Shown here piece after piece: positions 300-64,000 of a DNA stretch of 64,000 bases (positions are counted from its first letter, which is position 1; each line of letters opens with the position of its first letter). The stretch comes from Chiloscyllium plagiosum (lineage: Eukaryota), in the NCBI RefSeq assembly GCF_004010195.1, contig NC_057718.1, positions 93,398,561 through 93,462,560 of the forward strand. Reading direction: 5' to 3'. The notes under the pieces were generated by a model. The model was not told the origin of the DNA, made no database searches, and was given only the letters and a program-made list of their open reading frames with translations. A program made the position numbers and the translations under genes.

Positions 300-2139
300 A
301 GGACCTTTGGGAATGTTCATAGTTATGGAGGAGGAGAGGGTTAGGCAAAATGGGAGGATATTTAATTGGGGAAGAGGAAACTATGATGCGATTAGACATG
401 AGTTAGGAAGCATGGATTGGGAGCAATTGTTCCATGGTAAAGACACTATAGACATGTGGAGACTGTTTAAGGAACAGTTGTTGCAAGTGATGCATAAATA
501 TGTCCCTCTGAGACAAGCAAGAAGTGGTAAGATAAAGGAACCTTGGATGACGAGAGCGGTGGAGCTTCTCGTCAAAAGAAAGAAGGCAGCTTACATAAGG
601 TGGAGGAAGCTAGGATCAAGCTCAGCTCNNNNNNNNNNNNNNNNNNNNNNNNNNNNNNNNNNTCGCCACTTGCGAAGATCTTTGCATCCTCGCTCTCCAC
701 TGGAGGCGTACCTGAGGACTGGAGAGAGGCAAATGTAATTCCTTTCTTCAAGAAAGGAAATAGGGAATCCCCGGCAATTACAGACCAGTAAGTCTCACGT
801 CTGTCGTCTGCAAGGTGTTAGAAAGGATTCTGAGAGATAGGATTTATGACCATGTGGAAGAGCATGGCTTGATTAAATGCAGTCAACACGGCTTTGTGAG
901 GAGCAGGTCATGCCTCACAAACCTTATCGAGTTCTTTGAGGATGTGACTAGAAAGGTTGATGAGGGTTGAGCTGTGGATGTGGTGTATATGGACTTCAGC
1001 AAGGCATTTGATAAGGTTCCCCATGGTAGGCTCATTCAGAAGGTCAGTAGGAATGGGATTCAGGGGAACATAGTTGTCTGGATACAGAATTGGCTGGCCA
1101 ACAGAAGACAGCGAGTGGTAGTAGAAGGAAAATATTCTGCCTGGAAGTCTGTGGCCAGTGGTGTTCCACAGGGCTCTATCCTTGGGCCTCTACTATTTGT
1201 AATTTTTATTAATGACTTGGATGAGGGGATTGAAGGATGGGTCAGCACGTTTGCAGATGACACAAAGGTTGGAGGTGTCGTTGACATTATATAGGGCTGT
1301 TGTAGGCTGCAGTGGGACATTGACAGGATGCAGAGATGGGCTGAGAGGTGGCAGATGGAGTTCAACCTGGATAAATGCGAAGTGATACATTTTGGAAGGT
1401 CAAATTTGAAAGCTGAGTACAGGATTAAGGATAGGATTCTTGACAGTGTGAAGGAACAGAGGGATCTTGGGGTGCAGGTACATAGATCCCTTAAAATGGC
1501 CACCCAAGTGGACAGGGTTGTTAAGAAAGCATATGGTGTTTTGGCTTTCATTAACAGGGGGATTGAGTTTAAGAGTTGTGAGATCTTGTTGCAGCTCTAT
1601 AAAACTTTGGTTAGACCGCACTTGAAATACTGCGTCCAGTTCTGGTCACCCTATCATAGGAAAGGTTGGATGCTTTGGAGAGGGTTCAGAGGAGGTATAC
1701 CAGGATGCTGCCTGGACTGGAGGGCTTATCTTATGAAGAGAGGTCGACTGAGCTCGGACTTTTTTCATTGGAGAAAAGGAGGAGGAGAGGGGACCTAATT
1801 GAGATATACAAGATAACGAGAGGCATAGATAGAGTCGATAGCCAGAGACTGTTTCCCAGGGCAGAAATGACTAACACAAGGGGCCATAGTTTTAAGCTGG
1901 TTGGAGGAAAGTATAGAGGGGATGTCAGAGGCAGGTTCTTTACACAGAGAGTTGTGAGAGCATGGAATGTGTCGCCAGCAGCAGATGTGGAAGCAAGGTC
2001 ATTGGGGACATTTAAGAGACTACTGGACATGCATATGGTCACAGAAATTTGAGGGTGCATACATGAGTATCAGTGGTCGGTACAACATCGTGGGCTGAAG
2101 GGCCTGTTCTGTGCTGTACTGTTCTATGTTCTATGTTCT
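300..2139 (+). mobile_element. CR1-clade LINE, 5'-truncated, young-looking (ORF2 RT fragments)
   Basis: ORFs 974-1294 ([36 protein letters not shown]), 1328-1798 and 1666-2052 are CR1 ORF2 pieces with frameshifts/stops; ends in (TTCTATG)n tail. Confidence 0.95.
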
Positions 2140-6389: not shown

Positions 6390-7810
6390 CAGAACAACCT
6401 CAGTTATCCGAACACCAGTTATCTGAATTTTGGATTATCTGAAAAAGATCTCAAGGTCCCATAAATATTTTATTAAATTTCAATGAAAGCACAGCGCGAT
6501 CAAGCAGCCTGGGTTTGCTGCAGGAGCAGGAATAGGGTCGCCATGGGAACCCTGTTCCTGCTATTGCTGTCGCCATGGGAACCCTGTTCCTGCTATTGCT
6601 GTCACCACGAGACCCAGTTCCTGTTATTGTCATCACCATGGGAACCCTGTTTCAGGGCTATTGCTGCCACCATGAGACCCTGTAGTTACTATTGCCACCG
6701 TCACGGAAACCCTGTTCCTGCTATTGCTGTCGCCATGGGAACCCTGTTCCTGCTATTGCTGTCGCCATAGGAACCCTGTTTCTGCTATTGCTGTCTCCAT
6801 GGGAACCCTGTTCCTTCTATTGCCGCCGCCACGGAAACCCTGTTCCTGCTATCGCTGTCACCATGGGAACCCTGTTCCTGCTATTGCTGTCGCCACGGAA
6901 ATCCTGTTCCTACTATTGCTGTCACCATGGGAACCCTGTTCCTGCTATTGCTGTCGCCATGGGAACCCTGTTCCTTCTATTGCCGCCGCCATGGAAATCC
7001 TGTTCCTGCTATTGCCGTCGCCATGGGAACCCTGTTTCTGCTATTGCTGTCACCATGGGAACCCTGTTCCTGCTATTGCTGTCTCCATGGGAACCCTGTT
7101 CCTTCTATTGCCGCCGCCACGGAAACCCTGTTCCTGCTATCGCTGTCACCATGGGAACCCTGTTCCTTCTATTGCCGCCGCCACGGAAATCCTGTTCCTG
7201 CTATTGCTGTCGCCATGGGAACTCTGTTCCTGCTATTGCTGTCGCCATGGGAACCCTGTTCCTGCTATTGCTGTCACCACGAAACCCAGTTCCAGGTATT
7301 ATCATCACCATGGGAACCCTGTTCCCGCTATTGCTGTCGCCATGGGAACCCTCTTCCAGGGCAAATTGCTGCCACCATGAGACCCTGTTCCTGCTATTGC
7401 CGCCGCCACAGAAACTCTGTTCCTGCTATTGCCATTGCCATGGGAACCCTGTTCCTGCTCCCACCACTACAAAACTCTGTTCCTGCTATTGCCACCACCA
7501 CGGAAACCCTGTCCCTGCTATTGCCGTTGCCATGGGAACCCTGTTCCTACTGATGCTGCCGCCATGGGAACCCTGTTCCCGCTATTGCCCTCACCATGGG
7601 ACCCTGTTCCTGCTATTGCCGTCACCACGGGAACCCTGTGCCCACTATTGCCATTACCATGGGAACCCTGTTCATACTATTACCATCACCACAGGAACCC
7701 TGTTCCTGCTATTGCCATTCCCATGGGAACCCTGATAAGTTATCCGAACAATCAGTTATCTGAACAAAATAGTCCCCGCCCGTCTTGTTTAGGTAATCAA
7801 GGTTGTTCTG
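6390..7810. mobile_element. Tigger/pogo-like MITE containing a minisatellite
   Basis: TIRs cagaacaacctcagttatccgaac (6390) / gtttaggtaatcaaggttgttctg (ends 7810), left TA flank, subterminal ttatc(c/t)gaa repeats; same ends as 46804-47119. Confidence 0.75.
6541..7733. repeat. 32-bp minisatellite, about 37 units (ccatgggaaccctgttcctgctattgctgtcg)
   Basis: Direct 32-nt periodicity with no spacers; explains the overlapping Cys/Pro/Leu-rich ORFs in all frames. Confidence 0.95.
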
Positions 7811-13800: not shown

Positions 13801-13817
13801 ACCCTATCAATGGTGCT

Positions 13818-13895
13818 GAAATATCTCCACAGAGGCCATTATCCTATCACCAAGTCACCCTTTATTTACATGTGGAGAGTCCTTGAGACTGATCC
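13818..13895 (-). mobile_element. LTR 3'-end fragment
   Basis: tgaaatatctccacagaggcc...tcaccaagtcaccctttatttac is the reverse complement of the LTR end at ~63545-63598. Confidence 0.7.
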
Positions 13896-17375: not shown

Positions 17376-18450
17376 GAGGAGAAAGTGAGGACTGCAGATA
17401 CTGGAGATCAGAGCTGAAAATGTGTTGCTGGAAAAGCGCAGCAGGTCAGGCAGCATCCAAGGAGCAGGAGAATCGACGTTTCGTGCATAAGCCCTTCTTC
17501 AGGAATGAGGAAAGTGTGTCCAGCAGGCTATGATAAAAGGTAGGGAGGAGGGACTTGGGGGAGGGGCGTTGGAAATGCGATAGATGGAAGGAGGTCAAGG
17601 TGAGGGTGATAGGCCGGAGTGGGGNNNNNNNNNNNNNNNNNNNNNNNNNNNNNNNNNNNNNNNNNNNNNNNNNNNNNNNNNNNNNNNNNNNNNNNNNNNN
17701 NNNNNNNNNNNNNNNNNNNNNNNNNNNNNNNNNNNNNNNNNNNNNNNNNNNNNNNNNNNNNNNNNNNNNNNNNNNNNNNNNNNNNNNNNNNNNNNNNNNN
17801 NNNNNNNNNNNNNNNNNNNNNNNNNNNNNNNNNNNNNNNNNNNNNNNNNNNNNNNNNNNNNNNNNNNNNNNNNNNNNNNNNNNNNNNNNNNNNNNNNNNN
17901 NNNNNNNNNNNNNNNNNNNNNNNNNNNNNNNNNNNNNNNNNNNNNNNNNNNNNNNNNNNNNNNNNNNNNNNNNNNNNNNNNNNNNNNNNNNNNNNNNNNN
18001 NNNNNNNNNNNNNNNNNNNNNNNNNNNNNNNNNNNNNNNNNNNNNNNNNNNNNNNNNNNNNNNNNNNNNNNNNNNNNNNNNNNNNNNNNNNNNNNNNNNN
18101 NNNNNNNNNNNNNNNNNNNNNNNNNNNNNNNNNNNNNNNNNNNNNNNNNNNNNNNNNNNNNNNNNNNNNNNNNNNNNNNNNNNNNNNNNNNNNNNNNNNN
18201 NNNNNNNNNNNNNNATGTGGTGGAGGGCAGCGTCGACCACGTCTGGGGGGAAATTGCGGTCTTTGAAGAAGGAGGTCATCTGGGTTGTTCGATATTGGAA
18301 CTGGTCCTCCTGGGAGCAGATGCGGCGGAGACGAAGGAATTGGGAATATGGGATGGCATTTTTACAGGGGGCAGGGTGGGAGGAGGTGTAGTCTAGGTAG
18401 CTGTGGGAGTCGGTCGGTTTATAGTAAATGTTCGTGTTGATTCGGTCACG
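17376..18450 (-). mobile_element. Penelope-like retroelement, 5'-truncated, with assembly gap
   Basis: Minus-strand translation INTNIYYKPTDSHSYLDYTSSHP..KNAIPYSQFLRLRRICS (PLE RT thumb region); 3' end nearly identical to 51998-52240. Confidence 0.9.
17471..17506 (-). ncRNA. Minimal hammerhead ribozyme motif (family A), 2 stem mismatches
   Basis: attc CUGAAGA A GGGC UUAU GCAC GAAA CG UC gauu. Confidence 0.65.
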
Positions 18451-18960
18451 AACTTGGAAGAAGCTGTCTAATGATCTTTGGTGAACTGCTGTAGTGTGTC
18501 TTGTAGATGGTACAACACTGTAGCTACTGAGAGTCAGTGGTGGAGGGAGTGGATGTGGTGCCAATCAAGTGGGATGCTTTGTTCCTGGATGGTGTCAAGC
18601 TTCTTGTTTTTGGAATTTCACTTGTCCAAGCAAGTATAGAGTAACAGTTATAGTTTGAGTCTTCATAGAGTTTCCTTTAAATTTCATACAAATTAACAGC
18701 ATTAATCAGTCCTTTCAATCTGCTCCACTGTTCAAACCAGACTAAAATATTCAATGATCTGTTCTCCTGAGGCTGAGTTTCCCAAAGCGACAAAAACCTC
18801 TGACAGAAATAATTTCTCCTCATCTCTGTCCCAAAAGGACAACTGATACATATTAAATAGTGTGCCCTGGAACTGGCTCACTACCCCCCCGCTACCCCCC
18901 ACTCCCACCAAGGGAAAACATCATTTGCACATTCACCTTATAAAGACTGGACAAAATCTT

Positions 18961-21807: not shown

Positions 21808-23420
21808 AAGTTAAAAATCACACAACACCAGGTTATAGTCCAACAGGTTTAATTGGAAGCACTAGCTTTCAAAGCTCTGCTTCTTCATCACGTGGTTGTG
21901 GAGTACACAATTGTAAGACACAGAATTTATAGCAAAAGTTTACAGTGTGATGTAACTGAAATTATCCATTGAAACATACCTTGACTGTTTGTTAAGTCTC
22001 TCATCTGTTAGAATGACCATGTTAGTTTCACTTCTTTCACATGTAAATTGCAAAACGTTTTTTTGAAGTTACATTCTTAGGTGAACTTTAACAATTGGTG
22101 TCAGCCCAGATAATGTATTGAAGGTGATAGCCCCCTGTGTGCTGCTGTCTGTGCCATAATGTTTAGACTGATTCTAATCTAAACATGAATTGACAGAATC
22201 TTAAATATATTCATGCAGTTTTTGAGCAAAGTACAATGTAACTCTGCAAGTACAGATTCATTCTACAAACGTATGTGTGCATGTGGGTTTGTGTGTGTGT
22301 GTGGTGAGGGTGTTGTGAGTGTCTGAGAGAGAGTGTATATGTGTGTGTGAGTGTAAAGGGGTCTAAGTCTGTGAGAGGATGCATGCATGAGTGTGTGTGT
22401 GTATAGGAGTGTCTGTGTATGTGTGTGTGGGTCTGTAAAGGAGTGTCTGTGTGTGTGTTTGTGTGTGTAGTGCACCTGTAGTGTGACATGAACCCAAGGT
22501 CCCGGTTGAGGCCCTCCCTATGGGTATGGAACTTAGCTATCAGCCTCTCCTCGGCCACTTTTCACTGCTGCCTGTCCCAAAGTCCGCCTTGGAGAATGGT
22601 TACCCGAAGATCTGAGAAAGGGGTCTAAGTCTGTGAGAGGATGCATGCATGAGTGTGTGTGTGTATAGGAGTGTCTGTGTGTATGTGTGTGTGGGTCTGT
22701 AAAGGAGTGTCTGTGTTTGTGTGTGTAGTGCACCTGTAGTGCCGGTTGAGGCCCTCCCCCCGGTTGAGGCCCTCCCTATGGGTATGGAACTTAGCTATCA
22801 GCTTCTCCTCGGCCACTTTTCACTGCTGCCTGTCCCAAAGTCCGCCTTGGAGAATGGTTACCCGAAGATCCGAGCTCGAATGTTCTGGACCACTGTAGTG
22901 TTCCCCAACTGGGTGGGAAAACTCCTGTCTGTTGGTTGTTGTGCGGTGCCCATTCATCTTTGTAATTTGCTCAAAAGCTGAATAAATCCATGTAAGACTC
23001 TGTTAATTCATTTTTAGATTAGAATCTAAACATTATGGCACAGACAGCAGCACACAGGGGGCTAACACCTTCAACACATTATCTGGGCTGACACCAATTG
23101 TTAAAGTTCACCTGAGAACTTGAGAATGTAACTTTTTAAAAAAAAATTGTGATTTGCATGTGAAATAAGTGAAACTAACACAGTCATTCTAACAGATGAG
23201 AGACTTAACAAACAGTCAAGGTATGTTTCAATGTATAATTTCAGTTACATCACACTGTAAACTTTTGCTGTAAATTCTGTGTCTTACAANNNNNNNNNNN
23301 NNNNNNNNNNNNNNNNNNNNNNNNNNNNTGCTTCCAATTAAACCTGTTGGACTATAACCTGGTGTTGTGTGATTTTTAACTTTGTACATTCCTGTCCAAC
23401 ACCGGTATTTCCAAATCAAG
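21808..23420. mobile_element. Penelope-like insertion (family B) with long inverted arms and duplicated GIY-YIG C-terminus
   Basis: ~21808-22270 is inverted relative to ~22960-23385; minus-strand AEERLIAKFHTHREGLNRDLGFMSHY occurs twice; flanks accaattttgaag (21798) / accatttttgaag (23424). Confidence 0.85.
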
Positions 23421-35694: not shown

Positions 35695-37550
35695 TCAGCT
35701 CCAGTTAAGTAATCACTTCCCGAGCTTCCCACAGAGTTCTAGGGTACACCTGATCAGGTCCTGGAGATTTATCCACCGTTTTGCATTTCAAGACATCCAG
35801 CACTTCCTCCTCTGTAATATGGACATTTTTCAAGATGTCACCATCTGTTTCCCTTCTTTCTATATCTTCCAAGTCCTCCACATGAAATAATGATACAAAT
35901 TATTCATTTAGTATCTCACTCATCTCCCGCAGTTCCACATAAAGGCCACCTTGCTGATCTTTGAGGGGCCCTATTCTCTCCCCAGTTACCCTTTTGTCCT
36001 TAATGTATTTGTAAAAATCCTTTGGATTCTGCTTAACCTTATTTGCCAAAGCTATTTCATGTCCCCTTTTGCCCTCCTGATTTCCCTCTTAAGTATACTC
36101 CTACTGCCTTTATACTCTTCTAAGGATTCACTCGATCTATCCTGTCTATACTGATTAGGGATAGTCAACATGGCTTTATGCATGGGAAATCATGTCTCAC
36201 GAACTTTATTGAGTTTTTGAAGAAGTAACAAAAGGATTGATGAGAGCAGAGTGGTAGATGTGATCTATATGGACTTCAGCAAGGCATTCGACATGGTTCC
36301 CCATGGGAGACTGGTTAGCAAGGTTAGATCTCATGAAATTCATGGAGAACTAGCCATTTGGATACACAACTGGCTTGAAGGTAGAAGACAGAGGGTGTTG
36401 GGGAGGGTCATCCCTGGACTGCCGCAGGGATTTGTGCTGCGTCCACTACTTTTTGTCATTTATATAAATGATTTAGATGTGAGCATAAGAGGTGTAATTA
36501 GTAAATTTGCAGATTATACCAAAATTGGAGGTGTAGTGAACAGCGAAGAAGGTTACCTCAGAATACAACAGGATCTTGATCAGATGGGCCAATTGGCTGA
36601 AGAGTGGCAGATGGAGATTAAGCTAGATTAATGCGAGATGCTGCATTTTGGGCAGGCAAATCTTAGCAGTACTTATACACTTGATGGTAAGGTCCTAGGG
36701 AGTGTTGCTGAACAAGATGTCCTTAGAGTGCAGATTTATAGTTCCTTGAAAGTGGATTCTCAGGTAGATAGGATAGTGTAGAGGGCATTTGGCATGCTTT
36801 TCTTGATTGGTCAGAGTATTGAGTACAGGAGTTTGGAGACATGCTGCGTCTGTACAGGACGTTGGTTAGGCCATTTTTGGAATATTGCATGCATTTCTGG
36901 TGTCCTTCCTATCGGAAGAATGTTGTGAAACTTGCAAGGGTTCAGAAAAGATTTACAAGGATTTTGCCAGGTTTGGATGGTTTGAGCTATCGGGAGAGGC
37001 TGAACAGGCTGGGGCTGTTTTCCCTGGTGCGTCAGAGGCTGAGGGATGACCTGATAGAGGTTTATAAAATTATGAGCAGCATGGATGGGGTAAATAGACA
37101 AGGTCTTTTCCCAGGGGTGGGGGAGTCCAGAACTAGAGGGCATAGGTTTAAGGTGAGAGGGGAAAGACATAAAATGGACCTAAGGCACAACTTTTTTTCA
37201 CGCAGAGGGTGGTACATGTATGGAATGAGGTGCCAGAGGAAGTGGTGGAGGCTGATATATTTACAGCATTTAAAAGGCATCTGGATGGGTATATGAATAA
37301 GAAGGGTTTAGAGGGATATGGGCCGAATGTTGGTAAATGGGAGAAGATTGGGTTAGGATATCTGTTTGGCTGGTATGATTACAGCATTTAAAAGGCATCT
37401 GGATGGGTATATGAATAGGAAGTGTTTAGAGGGATATGGGCCAAATGCTGGCAAATGGGAGAAGATTGTGTTAGGATATCTGTTTGGCATAGATAAGTTG
37501 GACCGAAGAGTCTGTTTCCATGCTGTACATCTCTATGACTCTATGACTCT
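35695..37550 (+). mobile_element. CR1 LINE with inverted 5' segment (35695-36150 on minus) and duplicated 3' segment
   Basis: Plus-strand RT ([15 protein letters not shown]; ORFs 36251, 36841); minus segment encodes upstream ORF2 (REIRRAKRGHEIALANKVKQNPK..DKSPGPDQVYPR); (ctctatga)n tail. Confidence 0.92.
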
Positions 37551-52276: not shown

Positions 52277-53044
52277 TCAGGAGGGCGGTGCCGGGCTGGA
52301 GGGATTCGGCTGAGACAAGTTGGGGGGAGGGGGGATGAAGAAACTGGTGAAGTCCAAGTTCATCCCCTGTGGTTGGAGGGTTCCCAGTCGGAAGATAAGA
52401 TGCTCCTCCTCCGACCGTCGGGTTGTTGTGGTTTGGCGGTGGATGAGTCCAATGACCTGCATATCCTCGGTGGAGTGGGAGGGGGAGTTGAAATGCTGTG
52501 CTACAGGTTGGTTGGGTTGGTTCGTCCGGGTGGCCCAGAGGTGCTCTCTGAATCGCTCCGCAAGTAGGCGGCCTGTCTCCCCAATATAGAGGAGGCCACA
52601 CCGGCTGCAGCGGATGCAGTAGATGATGTGGGTGGAGGTGCAGGTGAATCTGTGGCGGATATGGAAGTTTCCTTTGGGGCCTTGGAGAGAAGTGAGGGGG
52701 GAGGTGTGGGCGCAAGTGTTGCACCTCCTGCGGTTGCAAGGGAAGGTGCCGGGAGTGGTGGTTGGGTCGGTGGGGGGTGTGGATCTGACAAGGGAGTCGC
52801 GGAGGGAGTGGTCTCTACGGACAGCTGATAGGGGAGGGGAGGGAAATATATCCTTGGTGCTGGGGTCTGTTTGGAGGTGGCGGAAGTGACGGCGGATGAT
52901 GCGCTGTACATGGAGATTGGTGGGGTGGTAGGTGAGGACCAGTGGGGTTCTGTCCTGGTGGCGGTTGGAGGGGCGGGGCTCAAGGGCGGAGGAGCGGGAA
53001 GTGGAGGAGATGCGGTGGAGGGCACCGTCGACCACGTCGACCAC
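52277..53044 (-). CDS. C-terminal part of the PLE polyprotein: linker, Cys motif and GIY-YIG endonuclease (no true start)
   Basis: PLVLTYHP, PCNRRRCNTC, IIYCIRCSRCGLLYIGETGRLLAERFREH, EEEHLIFRLGTLQPQGMN. Confidence 0.9.
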   Translation of the reverse strand: MVDVVDGALHRISSTSRSSALEPRPSNRHQDRTPLVLTYHPTNLHVQRIIRRHFRHLQTDPSTKDIFPSPPLSAVRRDHSLRDSLVRSTPPTDPTTTPGTFPCNRRRCNTCAHTSPLTSLQGPKGNFHIRHRFTCTSTHIIYCIRCSRCGLLYIGETGRLLAERFREHLWATRTNQPNQPVAQHFNSPSHSTEDMQVIGLIHRQTTTTRRSEEEHLIFRLGTLQPQGMNLDFTSFFIPPPPNLSQPNPSSPAPPS

Positions 53045-53131
53045 GGTGCCCTCCTATCCTGCCATCATGCTTGAATGTGAATTACAACTGGCTCCAGGTG
53101 AAAGAATTTGAAAGTAGTACGCTTGCTGGTA

Positions 53132-59664: not shown

Positions 59665-61270
59665 ATGTTTTTGTGGGATGTGGGTGTCGCTGGCTGGGTC
59701 AGCATTTATTGCCCGTCCCCGGTTGCCCTTGAGAAGGTGGTGGTGAGCTGCCTTCTTGAACCTTCTGTGGATTGACCCACAATGCCTTAAGGAAGGAATT
59801 CCAGAATTTTGACTCAGTGATAGTGAAGGAACGGCGATATATCGCCAAGTCAGTTTGCTGAGTGGCTAAGAAGGGAAGTTGCAGATAGGCGGTCTTCTTC
59901 TGGATTGATTGCCCTTGTCCTTCTTGAAGGAAATGGCCATGAGTTTGAAAGGTGCTGTCTGAGGATCTTTGGTGAATTAACGCTGCTATTGAGCATCAGT
60001 GGTGGAGGGAATGGACATGGTGTGATGACAATCAAGTGGGCTGCTTTGGCCTGGATGGTGTTGAGCTTCTTGAGTGTTATTGGAATTGCACCCATCCAGG
60101 CAAGTGGGGAGTATTCCATCACACCCTGATGTGTGCCTTGTAAATGGTGGACAGGCATTTAGAAGTCAGAAGTTGAGTTACTCGCCAAGGTATTCCTAGC
60201 CTCTGATCTGCTTTTGTAGCCACAGTGTTTATGTGATGGGTCCAGTTGAGTTTTTTGTCAATGGTAACCTCCAGGATACTGATAGTGAGAAACTCAGTGA
60301 TGGCAACAGTCAAGAGACAGTGGTTAGATTGTCTCTTATTGGAGATCATCATTGTCTCGCATTTGTTGTGGCATGAACTTTGCTTGTCACTTGTCAGCCC
60401 AAGCCTGGATACTGTCTGGATCTTGTTGTATTTGAACATTGACTACTTCAACGTCTGAGGAATAACGAGTGGTGCTGAACATTGTGCAATCATTGGCAAA
60501 CATCCCCACTTCTGATGGAGGGAAGGCCATTGATGAAGCAGCTGAAGTTGGTTGGGCCTAGGACACTACCCGGAGGAACATCTGCAGAGATGTCCTGGAA
60601 TTGAGATGACTGACCTCCAACAACCACGACCATCTTCCAATGTGTCAGGAGAGTTGCCCCCGATACCCATTGCTCCCAGTTTTGCTATGGCTCCTTGATG
60701 CCACACTCGGTCCAAAGCAGTCTTGATGCCAAGGGCTGTCACTCTCACCTCCCCTCTGGAATTCAGCTTGTTTGTCCATGTTTGAATCAACTCTGTAATG
60801 AGGTCAGGAACTGAGTGGCCCTGGCAGAATCTAAATTGGGCGTCACTGAGCAGGTTATTACTGAGCAGGTGCTGCCTGATAGTACTATTATACACACCTT
60901 CCATCATTTTACTGATGATCAAGAGTAGACTGACGTGGCAGTAATTGGCTGGGTTAGAATTGTCCTTCATTTTATATATAGGACCTAACTAGTCAATTTC
61001 CACATTGTTGGGTAGATGCATGGTTGTAATGTACTGGACGAATTTGGCTAGTTCAGGAGCACAAGTCTTCATTGCTGTCACTGGAATGTTGTCAGGGCCT
61101 ATAGCATTTGTAGTATCCAGTGTTTCCATGTTGGAGAGTTTCATGTGGAGTGAACTGAATTGGCAGAAGGCTGATCTCTGTAATGCTGAAGACCACTGGA
61201 AGAGATTGTAATGGATCATCCACTTGGCCCTTCTGCCTGAAAATTGTGTAAATGTTTCAGCCTTATCAGT
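59665..61270 (-). mobile_element. Degenerate non-LTR retrotransposon RT region (CR1/L2 group, distinct from the main CR1)
   Basis: ORFs 60566-60970 (NPANYCHVSLL..NNLLSDAQFRF..ALDRVWHQG), 60119-60439, 59850-60158 (MEYSPLAW), GPDNIP at 60989-61219. Confidence 0.88.
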
Positions 61271-61851
61271 GAACTAAGGAATCCTTGGTCTATCTGCTTC
61301 CTCATTCTCATCAGCCTTTATTCCACCAAAAGCACCTTTTCTTTCCCACTGGTAGTCCATTAGACTGCACTAGCTGCACTCCCTCACTGTCACCACCTGC
61401 TGGAAGAGGTCCTACTGAACAGGTGAGCTTCTTTGCTTAGAGGCTTCCATCAGTGTTGCCATCTGCTGGGGAAAGAGAGTCAGAATGGATGCAAATTGAT
61501 AACTTTGTCTCTCTCTCTCTCTGTCTTCACAGATGTGGCCAGACCTGCTGAGTTTCTCCAGCACTTTCTGCTTTTACCTCAGACCTTCAACATCTGCCAT
61601 ATATTGATTTTATTTGAGAAATTAGGTTAGATGACCAAAACCTTGGTGTAAGATGTAGATCTTAAAGTTTATTTTAAAGCAAGGTAGAGAGGCAAGAAAT
61701 TTTAGGGAGGATATTCCAGTGTTTCGTCCTTGGCAACTGGAAGTATAGATGCCAATGATGGAGCAATCAAAGTTGGGAATGCTCTACAAGACAGAATTAC
61801 AGGACTACTGATACAGTCAGGTTGGGGGAGATTGCAGAGATAGGGTGGTGT

Positions 61852-63598
61852 TGTGATTGGGACCAACTGGATCTTGTTGACTATGAGATCCTTGATTGGG
61901 GTTGTTAACCTCGGCCTATCAGGAAAGCCCTGGCTGACCAACAAAACCAGGAGATAGGATCTCCTCAGTTGAGGAGATTTAGAATCTCAAAAAAAAAATA
62001 TAAAACCAGGAGAGAGGTGGGCACCAGGGGGCATGGAGTGTTTTATTTCCCCCTCAGACTCTATTTTGATTTAATTCCTGCCCTCCCCTTTCACTTTTTG
62101 ATCACGTAGCATTGCTCTTTGTTGAGAAGGGCACTGCTTGTCACTGGCCACTTGGGTGTTTCCTTTCTTCCTGGTGGTGAAATATAAATAACAATTTATA
62201 CACTTATTGTTTTTCACTGTGACCGACACCAGCACACACTCAACATGGTTGCTGGGGAGAAAATAAGCGCTACTGCTGATAGGCGGCTGTGTGGGGAAGA
62301 AGAATCCCCTCAATCTTGGGGGACTGACTCTGAGCTGGCTGGCCACAGAGCCAGTGTGTTACTGCTGCTGTTGATTTCTGCTGAGGAGGAAAGTTTTCCT
62401 TTCTTTCCCCTTTTGATTTTTGGTTTTTCCTTGTTTTTTTGGTGTTTGTTTTTCTGGTTTCGTTCCTTGTCTCCTTTAATTTAGAAAAAAATACAACCAG
62501 GAGAGAGAACCTCCACAGTTGAGAAAGGAAATAAAAATAGCCAGGAGATTTAGAATCTTAAAAAAAGAAAAAAAATGTTTAACCAGGAGAGAAGCGAGCA
62601 CCAGAGGGCATGGAGTGTTTTATTTCCCCCTCGGATTCTATTTTGATTAAACCCCTGCCCTCCCCTTTCACTTTTTCGATCACGTAGACATTACCCCTAA
62701 GGGCACTGCTCGTCACTGGCCATTTTTGTTCTTCCTGGTGATGGGAATGAATAAAGTTTTCTGCACCCATTGTTTCTTCACTGTGTCCTACACCTACATG
62801 TACATGACATGGATGCTGGGGGTCGGATATATGCACTGCTTGGCGGTAGTTTGGGGGATTATAAAAGACAAACCAGGAGATGAAAATCTCCTCAGTTCAG
62901 GAAAAAAATTAAAAATATAAGCAGGAGATTTTTAGAATGTCCTCAGTTGTGAAAGAAAAAAAATAACCAGGAGATTTAGTATCTCAAAAAAAATGTATAA
63001 CCAGGAGAGAAGTGGGCATCGGGGGCATGGAGTGCTTTGTTTCTCCTGCTGACTCTATTTTGATTTAAGTCCTGCCCTCCTCTTCAATTTTTCATTCACA
63101 CAGGCTTTGTCCTTAAGAAAAGGGGCACTGCTTGTCACTGGCCATTTTGATGTTTTGGTGGAATGCGAATAACGTTTTCTGCATGCGATGTTTCTTCACT
63201 GTGTCCTACACCTACACGCACAACATGGATGCTGGGGAGAAAAAAAGGAAAAAAATAAAGAAAATATATAACTTGGGGAATTAGAATCTCCGCCAAAAAA
63301 TAAGAAAATATAACCAGGGGATTTAGAATCTCGTAGAGAAAAAAATATATAATCAGGAGATTAGAATCTCCACAAAATAAAAGCGAGAAAATATAACTAG
63401 GCGATTCAGAATCTCCTCGATTCAGGGACTGACTCTGAGCTAGCTGGCCACAGCCAAAAAAAGCTATTACCAGGAGATTTAGAATCTCCTCAGTGGAGGG
63501 GGTTGACTCTGAACTGGCTGGTCATAGCCAGTGTACTGTGCACAAGTAAATACAGGATGACTTGGTGATGGGATACCGGCCGCTGTGCAGTTATTTCA
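61852..63598 (+). mobile_element. Solo LTR, internally expanded
   Basis: TG...CA ends, 5-bp TSD ggtgt (61847-61851, 63599-63603), 3' end homologous to 13818-13895. Confidence 0.7.
61944..63495 (+). repeat. About 15 copies of ataaccaggagatttagaatctc, mostly A-tract-preceded, plus three copies of a ~230-290-nt module
   Basis: Direct inspection; modules at ~62011-62296, 62588-62857, 63006-63237. Confidence 0.85.
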
Positions 63599-64000
63599 GG
63601 TGTTAATGTGTGTGATTTGTAAAAAAAATTGAGAATTTTAAAGTCAAGATATTTCTTGAAGTTGAGGCACTATTCATCATTGAGCACAACACTGCTTGAT
63701 GCAAGTTAAGACATGGGCCACAGAGTTTTGAAATGGCCTTAAGTTTAAGGAAAGTGGAATGTGGGAGATCAACCACATTAGTGTTATAACAAAAACATCA
63801 AGTAGGTTTCCAAAAGCAAATGAACTGAGGTAAGGCTAGAGGTGGGTGGTGGTGTTATTTATGCAGAATTAGACAGGGAAATTAGCTCTGCATGTGTTCT
63901 TTCCATAATAATCTTTAACCAACTATTGTAAACTGGATAATATCTGACAGTGATGGATTCAAATTGTTCTAATCCATTGCCCAGAATTAGACCCAGTGTT

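Follow-up and report, generated by a model that had tools for sequence, protein, structure and literature searches.

LINE-like tails at one site of a solo LTR: a probable history of aimed insertion and block re-copying

Here, we describe a solo LTR that carries an array of repeated target copies, A-tracts, and LINE-like tails, all arranged around one site. The LTR lies in a 64,000-nucleotide stretch of DNA, the whole of which was analyzed and is referred to below as the window. Comparison with other copies of the LTR, viewed through public contigs, supports the conclusion that a LINE-like element inserts at one site of this LTR family. We propose that the array has a history in two layers: LINE insertions aimed at the target took place serially, and one block of units was then re-copied within the array. 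We give this reading a probability of about 0.7. The first-pass annotation of this DNA had envisaged serial, site-specific insertion with about 15 separate events. An aimed LINE at one site stands, but 15 separate events do not, because nine of the units are three copies of a single block. Judged from the sequence, the array may be accounted for by about 7-9 primary insertions and 2-4 re-copyings.

The LTR and its surroundings

The LTR is 1747 bp long, opens with TGTGA, closes with TTTCA, and is flanked on both sides by the 5-bp duplication GGTGT (Table 1). Its ends were defined by pairing TG at 61835-61879 with CA at 63585-63611 and requiring a duplication of 4-6 bp; among the positions tried, 61852 and 63598 are the sole pair with such a duplication. 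The TG..CA LTR with a target duplication that had been annotated at first pass is therefore confirmed. With one target copy only, the length of the LTR would be ~224 bp. We class the LTR as solo because it is without an internal region, and the family may be Gypsy-type.

Other copies of the LTR were viewed via contigs from four public runs, two from the organism of the window (different studies) and one each from two related organisms. Contigs were mapped on 61500-63900 at 80% likeness, and contig depth was not taken as copy number. In the four runs, contig matching ends at 63598 with 666, 453, 562, and 453 loose ends, and the agreement among the loose ends behind this position is 0.33-0.35. 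The flanks beyond 63598 are unrelated to one another, and so a dispersed repeat ends at this position. Its 5′ boundary is more diffuse, with loose ends accumulating at 61868 in two runs; these are LTR relatives with a different 5′ tip, meaning that the family has subfamilies. A second copy of the LTR 3′ end, 65 bp long and 83% alike, is found at 13816-13880 on the minus strand of the window. It ends in the same CA, and neither a 5′ part nor a target was found adjoining it.

The window is repeat-rich animal DNA. A very common repeat (61500-61576) ends just left of the LTR, with >1000 contigs per run ceasing to match at 61575. Elsewhere there is a 32-bp minisatellite (6537-7734, 37.6 copies, 79% matches) with long stop-free frames on the plus strand. 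Two Penelope-like fragments lie on the minus strand, one at 52280-53053 with a GIY-YIG match (E = 1.7e-4, just below the curated cut-off) and one at 17446-18564 that is interrupted by an N gap. Fragments of LINE-type reverse transcriptase (RVT_1) are present at 971-1291 (+), 36221-36628 (+), and 60569-60988 (-), and two-copy tandem duplications at 22355-22874 (258 bp, 91%) and 37250-37488 (118 bp, 92%).

Table 1. Features of the LTR and its array, in window coordinates
Feature	Position	Strand	Basis or remark
Left target-site duplication GGTGT, 5 bp	61847..61851	+	End-pair check
Entire solo LTR, TG..CA	61852..63598	+	End-pair check; sharp repeat end in four runs
LTR upstream of target, putatively U3-like	61852..61944	+	Many contigs of other copies, four runs
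Block H1: target cut 29, partial target cut 21, A-tract, target cut 10, tail B1	61941..62297	+	
Tail B1: last 20 codons and 3′ untranslated part of LINE-like element	62012..62297	+	
Long target copy, downstream-LTR offsets 14-67	62301..62357	+	
Segment C: 126-bp T-rich insert and A-tract	62358..62491	+	
Block H2: target cut 29, A-tract, cut 21, A-tract, cut 10, tail B2	62492..62860	+	
Tail B2, reaching the element's 3′ end	62589..62860	+	
Short A-rich remnant, target copy cut ~32, A-tract	62861..62915	+	
Block H3: same three units as H1/H2 and tail B3	62916..63239	+	
Tail B3	63007..63239	+	Ends ~40 bases before the element's 3′ end, at an A-rich spot
Three short units (A-tract and target cut 22-25), period ~42 bp	63240..63391	+	
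Long target copy cut ~63 and A-tract	63392..63464	+	
Terminal complete target: TATA-like edge, hairpin, TCAGT, AGTAAA, LTR end	63465..63598	+	
Right target-site duplication GGTGT, 5 bp	63599..63603	+	End-pair check

The target motif and its copies

The LTR contains 16 copies of the target motif, of which 14 are anchored on a AACCAGGAGA-like 10-mer and two are without the left part. This agrees with the count of about 15 made at first pass and is far above what is seen in shuffled sequence: a 9-mer of the motif, allowing one mismatch, occurs 12 times versus a shuffle mean of 0.16 (maximum 3 in 2000 shuffles). A 25-mer, allowing three mismatches, occurs five times, always inside the array, and 0 times in 100 shuffles of the window.

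As had also been annotated, the copies have a common left edge and variable right ends, with right edges ranging from 10 to 67 bases. In order, the right edges are at 29, 21, 10, 67, 29, 21, 10, 32, 29, 21, and 10, where ends of one to three bases were set by eye. After the third block there are three copies cut at 22-25, one cut at 63, and then a complete copy. This final copy continues into normal LTR sequence to the LTR end, again as the first-pass annotation had it.

Two further properties ascribed to the motif hold in part. The 13 spacers chosen by eye before motif copies are indeed A-rich (64-100% A), but by a strict A-tract rule (9 A in 12) just 6 of 14 pass, compared with 399 of 62169 window positions. 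The A-tracts in the array are impure and old. The hairpin exists, with an 8-bp stem and a 3-base loop, but it is weak: the best copy has a z score of -2.2, equaled by 5 of 200 shuffles, and the signal is absent in two shortened copies (z scores of 0.19 and -0.46). We considered the hairpin as a functional signal and dropped the idea because of the weak score and its loss from the short copies.

The left edge of the target is a TATA-like ATATAA, with an initiator-like TCAGT 25 bases further on. By likeness to consensus sequences, this pair is probably the core promoter of the LTR. On the same footing, AGTAAA at 63545-63550 is presumably the poly(A) signal.

A LINE-like element probably aimed at the LTR

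Every target copy cut at 10 (n = 3) is followed by a sequence of 230-290 bp that we refer to as “B”. The three copies, B1, B2, and B3, are mutually 76-77% alike (BLAST). B1 has 20 codons and then a stop codon (62072-62074), and its A-tail is gone; B2 has no stop, and terminates in a short A-rich remnant followed by a target copy; B3 has a frameshift, and terminates in a 26-bp A-tract, again followed by a target copy. Together with segment C, the three tails occupy over half of the array; neither the tails nor segment C had been described at first pass. In the contigs, other copies of B continue upstream: 70 loose ends in one run (X4) precede 62012, in frame and stop-free over 10 codons (by eye), 89-117 loose ends precede 62034 in each of the four runs, and several contig pieces extend 100 or more letters upstream of B. 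Since its frame extends upstream in other copies, B is the 5′-truncated tail of a longer coding element, and the B family is a high-copy element. The features of non-LTR insertion found here are 5′ truncation, an A-rich 3′ end, and target duplication. The end of the B frame may be that of a Tx1-type ORF2, and B likely belongs to the Tx1 clade.

An alternative identity for the tail, in which its ..ACA-TGG.. would be an LTR end and primer-binding site, was considered and set aside: a LINE tail is consistent with the frame that ends in B and continues upstream in other copies, and with the A-rich 3′ end. Searches for relatives used short protein queries of 22-33 residues. The 22-residue tail peptide had no match in Pfam, PDB, or Atlas, and against cluster representatives it matched only three repetitive, unrelated proteins. 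When the 145 longest of the 160 window frames that are stop-free over at least 75 residues were compared with Pfam, along with the tail peptide, no domain was found in the array, and no reverse transcriptase or endonuclease was found at the locus. There is no Rfam family in the window, meaning that B is not a known structured RNA, and neither the tail nor the LTR end was found by exact-pattern scans of viral and metagenome contigs.

Contigs from other loci link B to the same LTR site. In 3 of the 12 junction rows listed (of 800), all three from run X4, the 5′ part of the LTR runs into the TATA-like target and then into B, with B starting at ~62115, ~62125, and ~62157, all unlike the 62012 start seen here. 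Counting the 62012 junction, there are four truncation points at a single LTR site. All of the LTR-to-B rows come from X4, and they are short contigs matched at 80% likeness, among which false joints are possible. In two more of the same 12 rows, the target is followed by other letters and then by an AT-rich stretch, after which the target recurs. Lastly, four joints among the best 15 of 1606 rows, for which the intervening letters are not given, link the 5′ part of the LTR to a downstream part (61897-63466, 61911-63403, 61911-63504, and 61923-62320); these would fit array-free LTR copies. The first-pass annotation had looked to empty copies and to copies with independent inserts for support. 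The three other truncation points in X4 provide the latter, and the four joints would be in keeping with the former. Because different truncation points occur at the same LTR site at other loci, aimed insertion of the LINE is supported.

The array also holds a second, unrelated insert, segment C, at the same site. No further copy of segment C was found within the window, nor was its source sequence found; it may come from another element, as its tail, or from the end of an RNA that was retrocopied. The case that had been set against serial insertion at first pass, unequal crossing-over without outside inserts, does not describe this array, in which outside inserts are present.

On these grounds, we propose the following for the first layer of the history. 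A sequence-choosing, Tx1-like LINE endonuclease would nick the bottom strand just left of the TATA-like box, priming would occur on poly(A), and the top strand would be cut 10 to ~67 bases further on. Each event would generate a left target copy with a variable right edge, an insert, and a renewed complete target. This insert could consist of a tail that has been truncated, of foreign T-rich sequence, or of an A-tract alone. As the renewed target would be the rightmost one, the array would grow at its right end.

One block, three copies

A block of three units (target cut at 29, target cut at 21, and target cut at 10 with a tail) occurs three times in the same order, and 9 of the 15 duplicated units belong to these blocks. 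When unit labels were shuffled, with classes that had been defined after data inspection, this order arose 57 times in 1,000,000, or 228 times if a fourth unit was placed in the middle class. The boundaries coincide in all three blocks, down to a non-target G that follows CAGTT, and all three tails begin at the same base; in block H1, the unit cut at 21 has had its own A-tract and left part deleted. Relative to the genome majority, the tails share deviating letters at 62057, in the alignment column that holds 63087, and in the head; in this shared-letter check 2 columns were positive, with 22 table rows tested, some of them repeating one column. The same cut points, order, tail start, and shared letters indicate that the block was made once and then re-copied. 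It follows that arrays of this type overstate the number of insertion events.

If every unit were instead an independent target-primed insertion, microhomology would have to fix the base at which the tail is truncated. With CAGGAGA at the end of the target and CAGGGAGA in the element at the junction, a preferred truncation point is plausible, and the tails are as far apart (20-22%) and as star-like as old independent insertions would be. Nevertheless, microhomology leaves the same two preceding A-tract units, their edges, and the non-target G unexplained, and the truncation points at other loci are different ones. We regard this alternative as very unlikely.

Local copying is not confined to the three blocks. 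The three short units after block H3 form a 42-bp tandem (3.9 copies, 70% matches), and their A-tracts have similar interruptions; they may be a local duplication. This raises an alternative in which a LINE landed by chance at an AT-rich, TATA-like site, and slippage or unequal exchange then amplified the region in tandem, with deletions, such that all A-tracts would descend from a single tail. Local copying is evident in the triple block and in the 42-bp array, the common interruptions in the A-tracts of the short units are as this alternative predicts, and deletions in the unit cut at 67 could have given those cut at 32 and 63. By contrast, a chance landing does not account for other copies in which B sits at this LTR site but is truncated at three different points, for target repeats with other spacers in other copies, or for segment C as a second unrelated insert at this site. 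Its deletion version also requires the loss of segment C twice. We consider it unlikely overall.

For the second layer of the history we retain one compound block, which would have arisen a single time and then been added to the same array in two further copies. A complete target is needed for the units cut at 32, 63, and 67, which lie between or after the blocks, and this fits growth at the right end. Plain unequal crossing-over is less fitting as the route, since it would copy segment C and then have to lose it twice. Two other routes would fit better: break repair in which the terminal target is repaired from a mis-paired target copy, and re-insertion of the block as RNA. In favor of the RNA route, the left boundary of the block falls at the initiator, and the tails differ in their 3′ ends. 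The DNA route is favored by a 2-base loss upstream of the initiator that is common to blocks 1 and 2; the T-run that holds this loss varies in length across several copies.

A more specific version of the RNA route is that the block is a mobile composite that borrows a promoter. Its RNA would extend from the LTR initiator to the LINE tail and poly(A), with two A-tract/target units inside, and the LINE would re-insert it at the same target, where the target duplication would give every new copy of the composite a fresh promoter. The left boundary of the block, CAGTTG, is conserved and lies at the initiator-like site 25 bases past the TATA-like box. This boundary, the star-like tails, the complete-target units between blocks, and the differing 3′ ends back the composite; the 2-base loss in blocks 1 and 2, and the lack of a copy elsewhere among the contigs examined, oppose it. 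We consider the composite doubtful.

Age of the array

The pairwise differences between the tails are 20.5, 22.4, and 19.8%, in a star pattern with 20, 19, and 21 private sites. The LTR differs by 17% from its second copy in the window, over 65 bp. We also tried to root the tails by majority letters, finding 4 sites shared by B1 and B3 versus 1 shared by B1 and B2 (13 B1 sites); this was dropped, because the sites are too few and conflict with the raw distances. Contigs of one related organism span both LTR-flank junctions, and those of the other span the right one. Over inner unit junctions, contigs from the relatives show 1.8-4.4% difference (8 pieces). The array is not covered from end to end by any single piece, and 12-21 gap letters occur in some of them, such that small differences in unit number between organisms are possible. 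With the tails 20-22% apart and the array in relatives 2-4% different, the array is ancient, being much older than the splits between these organisms. It appears to be inert, a dead repeat without sign of function.

These ages bear on a further alternative, that the array was built in an active master LTR and arrived ready-made, with the block copied through template switches of the reverse transcriptase that belongs to the LTR element itself. The tail divergence of 20-22% is close to the 17% between the LTR and its second copy, which would make the array as old as the spread of the LTR. On the other hand, the array is not reproduced in the contigs listed from other loci, the pieces over inner junctions are only 2-4% different and look orthologous, and a master element would presumably be impaired by an array in its core promoter. 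We consider this alternative very unlikely.

Comparison with known systems

Aimed insertion into repeats is already known, and the locus is a clear example of it rather than a new principle. What the locus adds is a clear case in which a LINE lands in another mobile element, here an LTR, at the sequence that is probably the LTR's core promoter. Such a landing would shelter the LINE, and would either disable the LTR promoter or lend it to the LINE. No title or abstract on such a system in cartilaginous fish was found; most subscription journals and Repbase Reports were outside the coverage of that search.

The nearest precedents by target are the crocodilian Tx1-clade LINEs Tx1-8_Crp and Tx1-4_AMi, which prefer LTR retrotransposons (PMC4494074). 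The same report calls a family target-specific when >20% of its copies are flanked by the target repeat (PMC4494074). For Tx1-8_Crp and Tx1-4_AMi, its main text gives neither a site within the LTR nor arrays (PMC4494074). At the locus described here, tails are all that is seen of the element. In Xenopus laevis, the endonuclease of Tx1L nicks one sequence within Tx1D, and this, too, is a LINE landing inside another mobile element (PMC1950540). However, the Tx1L target is a DNA transposon, and the specificity of Tx1L was demonstrated biochemically (PMC1950540), whereas at the LTR we infer it. The A-tract-only inserts have a counterpart in the human NF1 gene, where inserts of pure poly(T) have been interpreted as retrocopies with severe truncation (PMC3219598). 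Those L1-endonuclease inserts are likewise homopolymer-only and reuse a site, but they follow a loose T/A consensus and, as described there, are separate alleles in separate people with no stacked array (PMC3219598).

A further likeness is to SINEU-3/Tx1-Mar in Mariner-N4_AMi, where insertion into another repeat is also sequential and tandem copies surround one duplication (PMC4494074). Tandem SINEU-3 copies sandwich a target duplication, and truncated copies are taken in that report as proof of independent insertion (PMC4494074). Transcription from the flanking target has been proposed for SINEU (PMC4494074). Movement of the block described here as RNA, if it occurs, would illustrate a way for a non-autonomous retroposon to originate with no internal promoter, a question left open for SINEU, and the composite, if true, would directly exemplify transcription driven by the flank, as proposed there. 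The systems nonetheless differ: SINEU-3/Tx1-Mar has a DNA-transposon target, a U2-derived passenger head, and a fixed 16-mer duplication (PMC4494074), whereas the array described here has an LTR TATA-like target, right edges from 10 to 67, and many inserts that consist of an A-tract alone.
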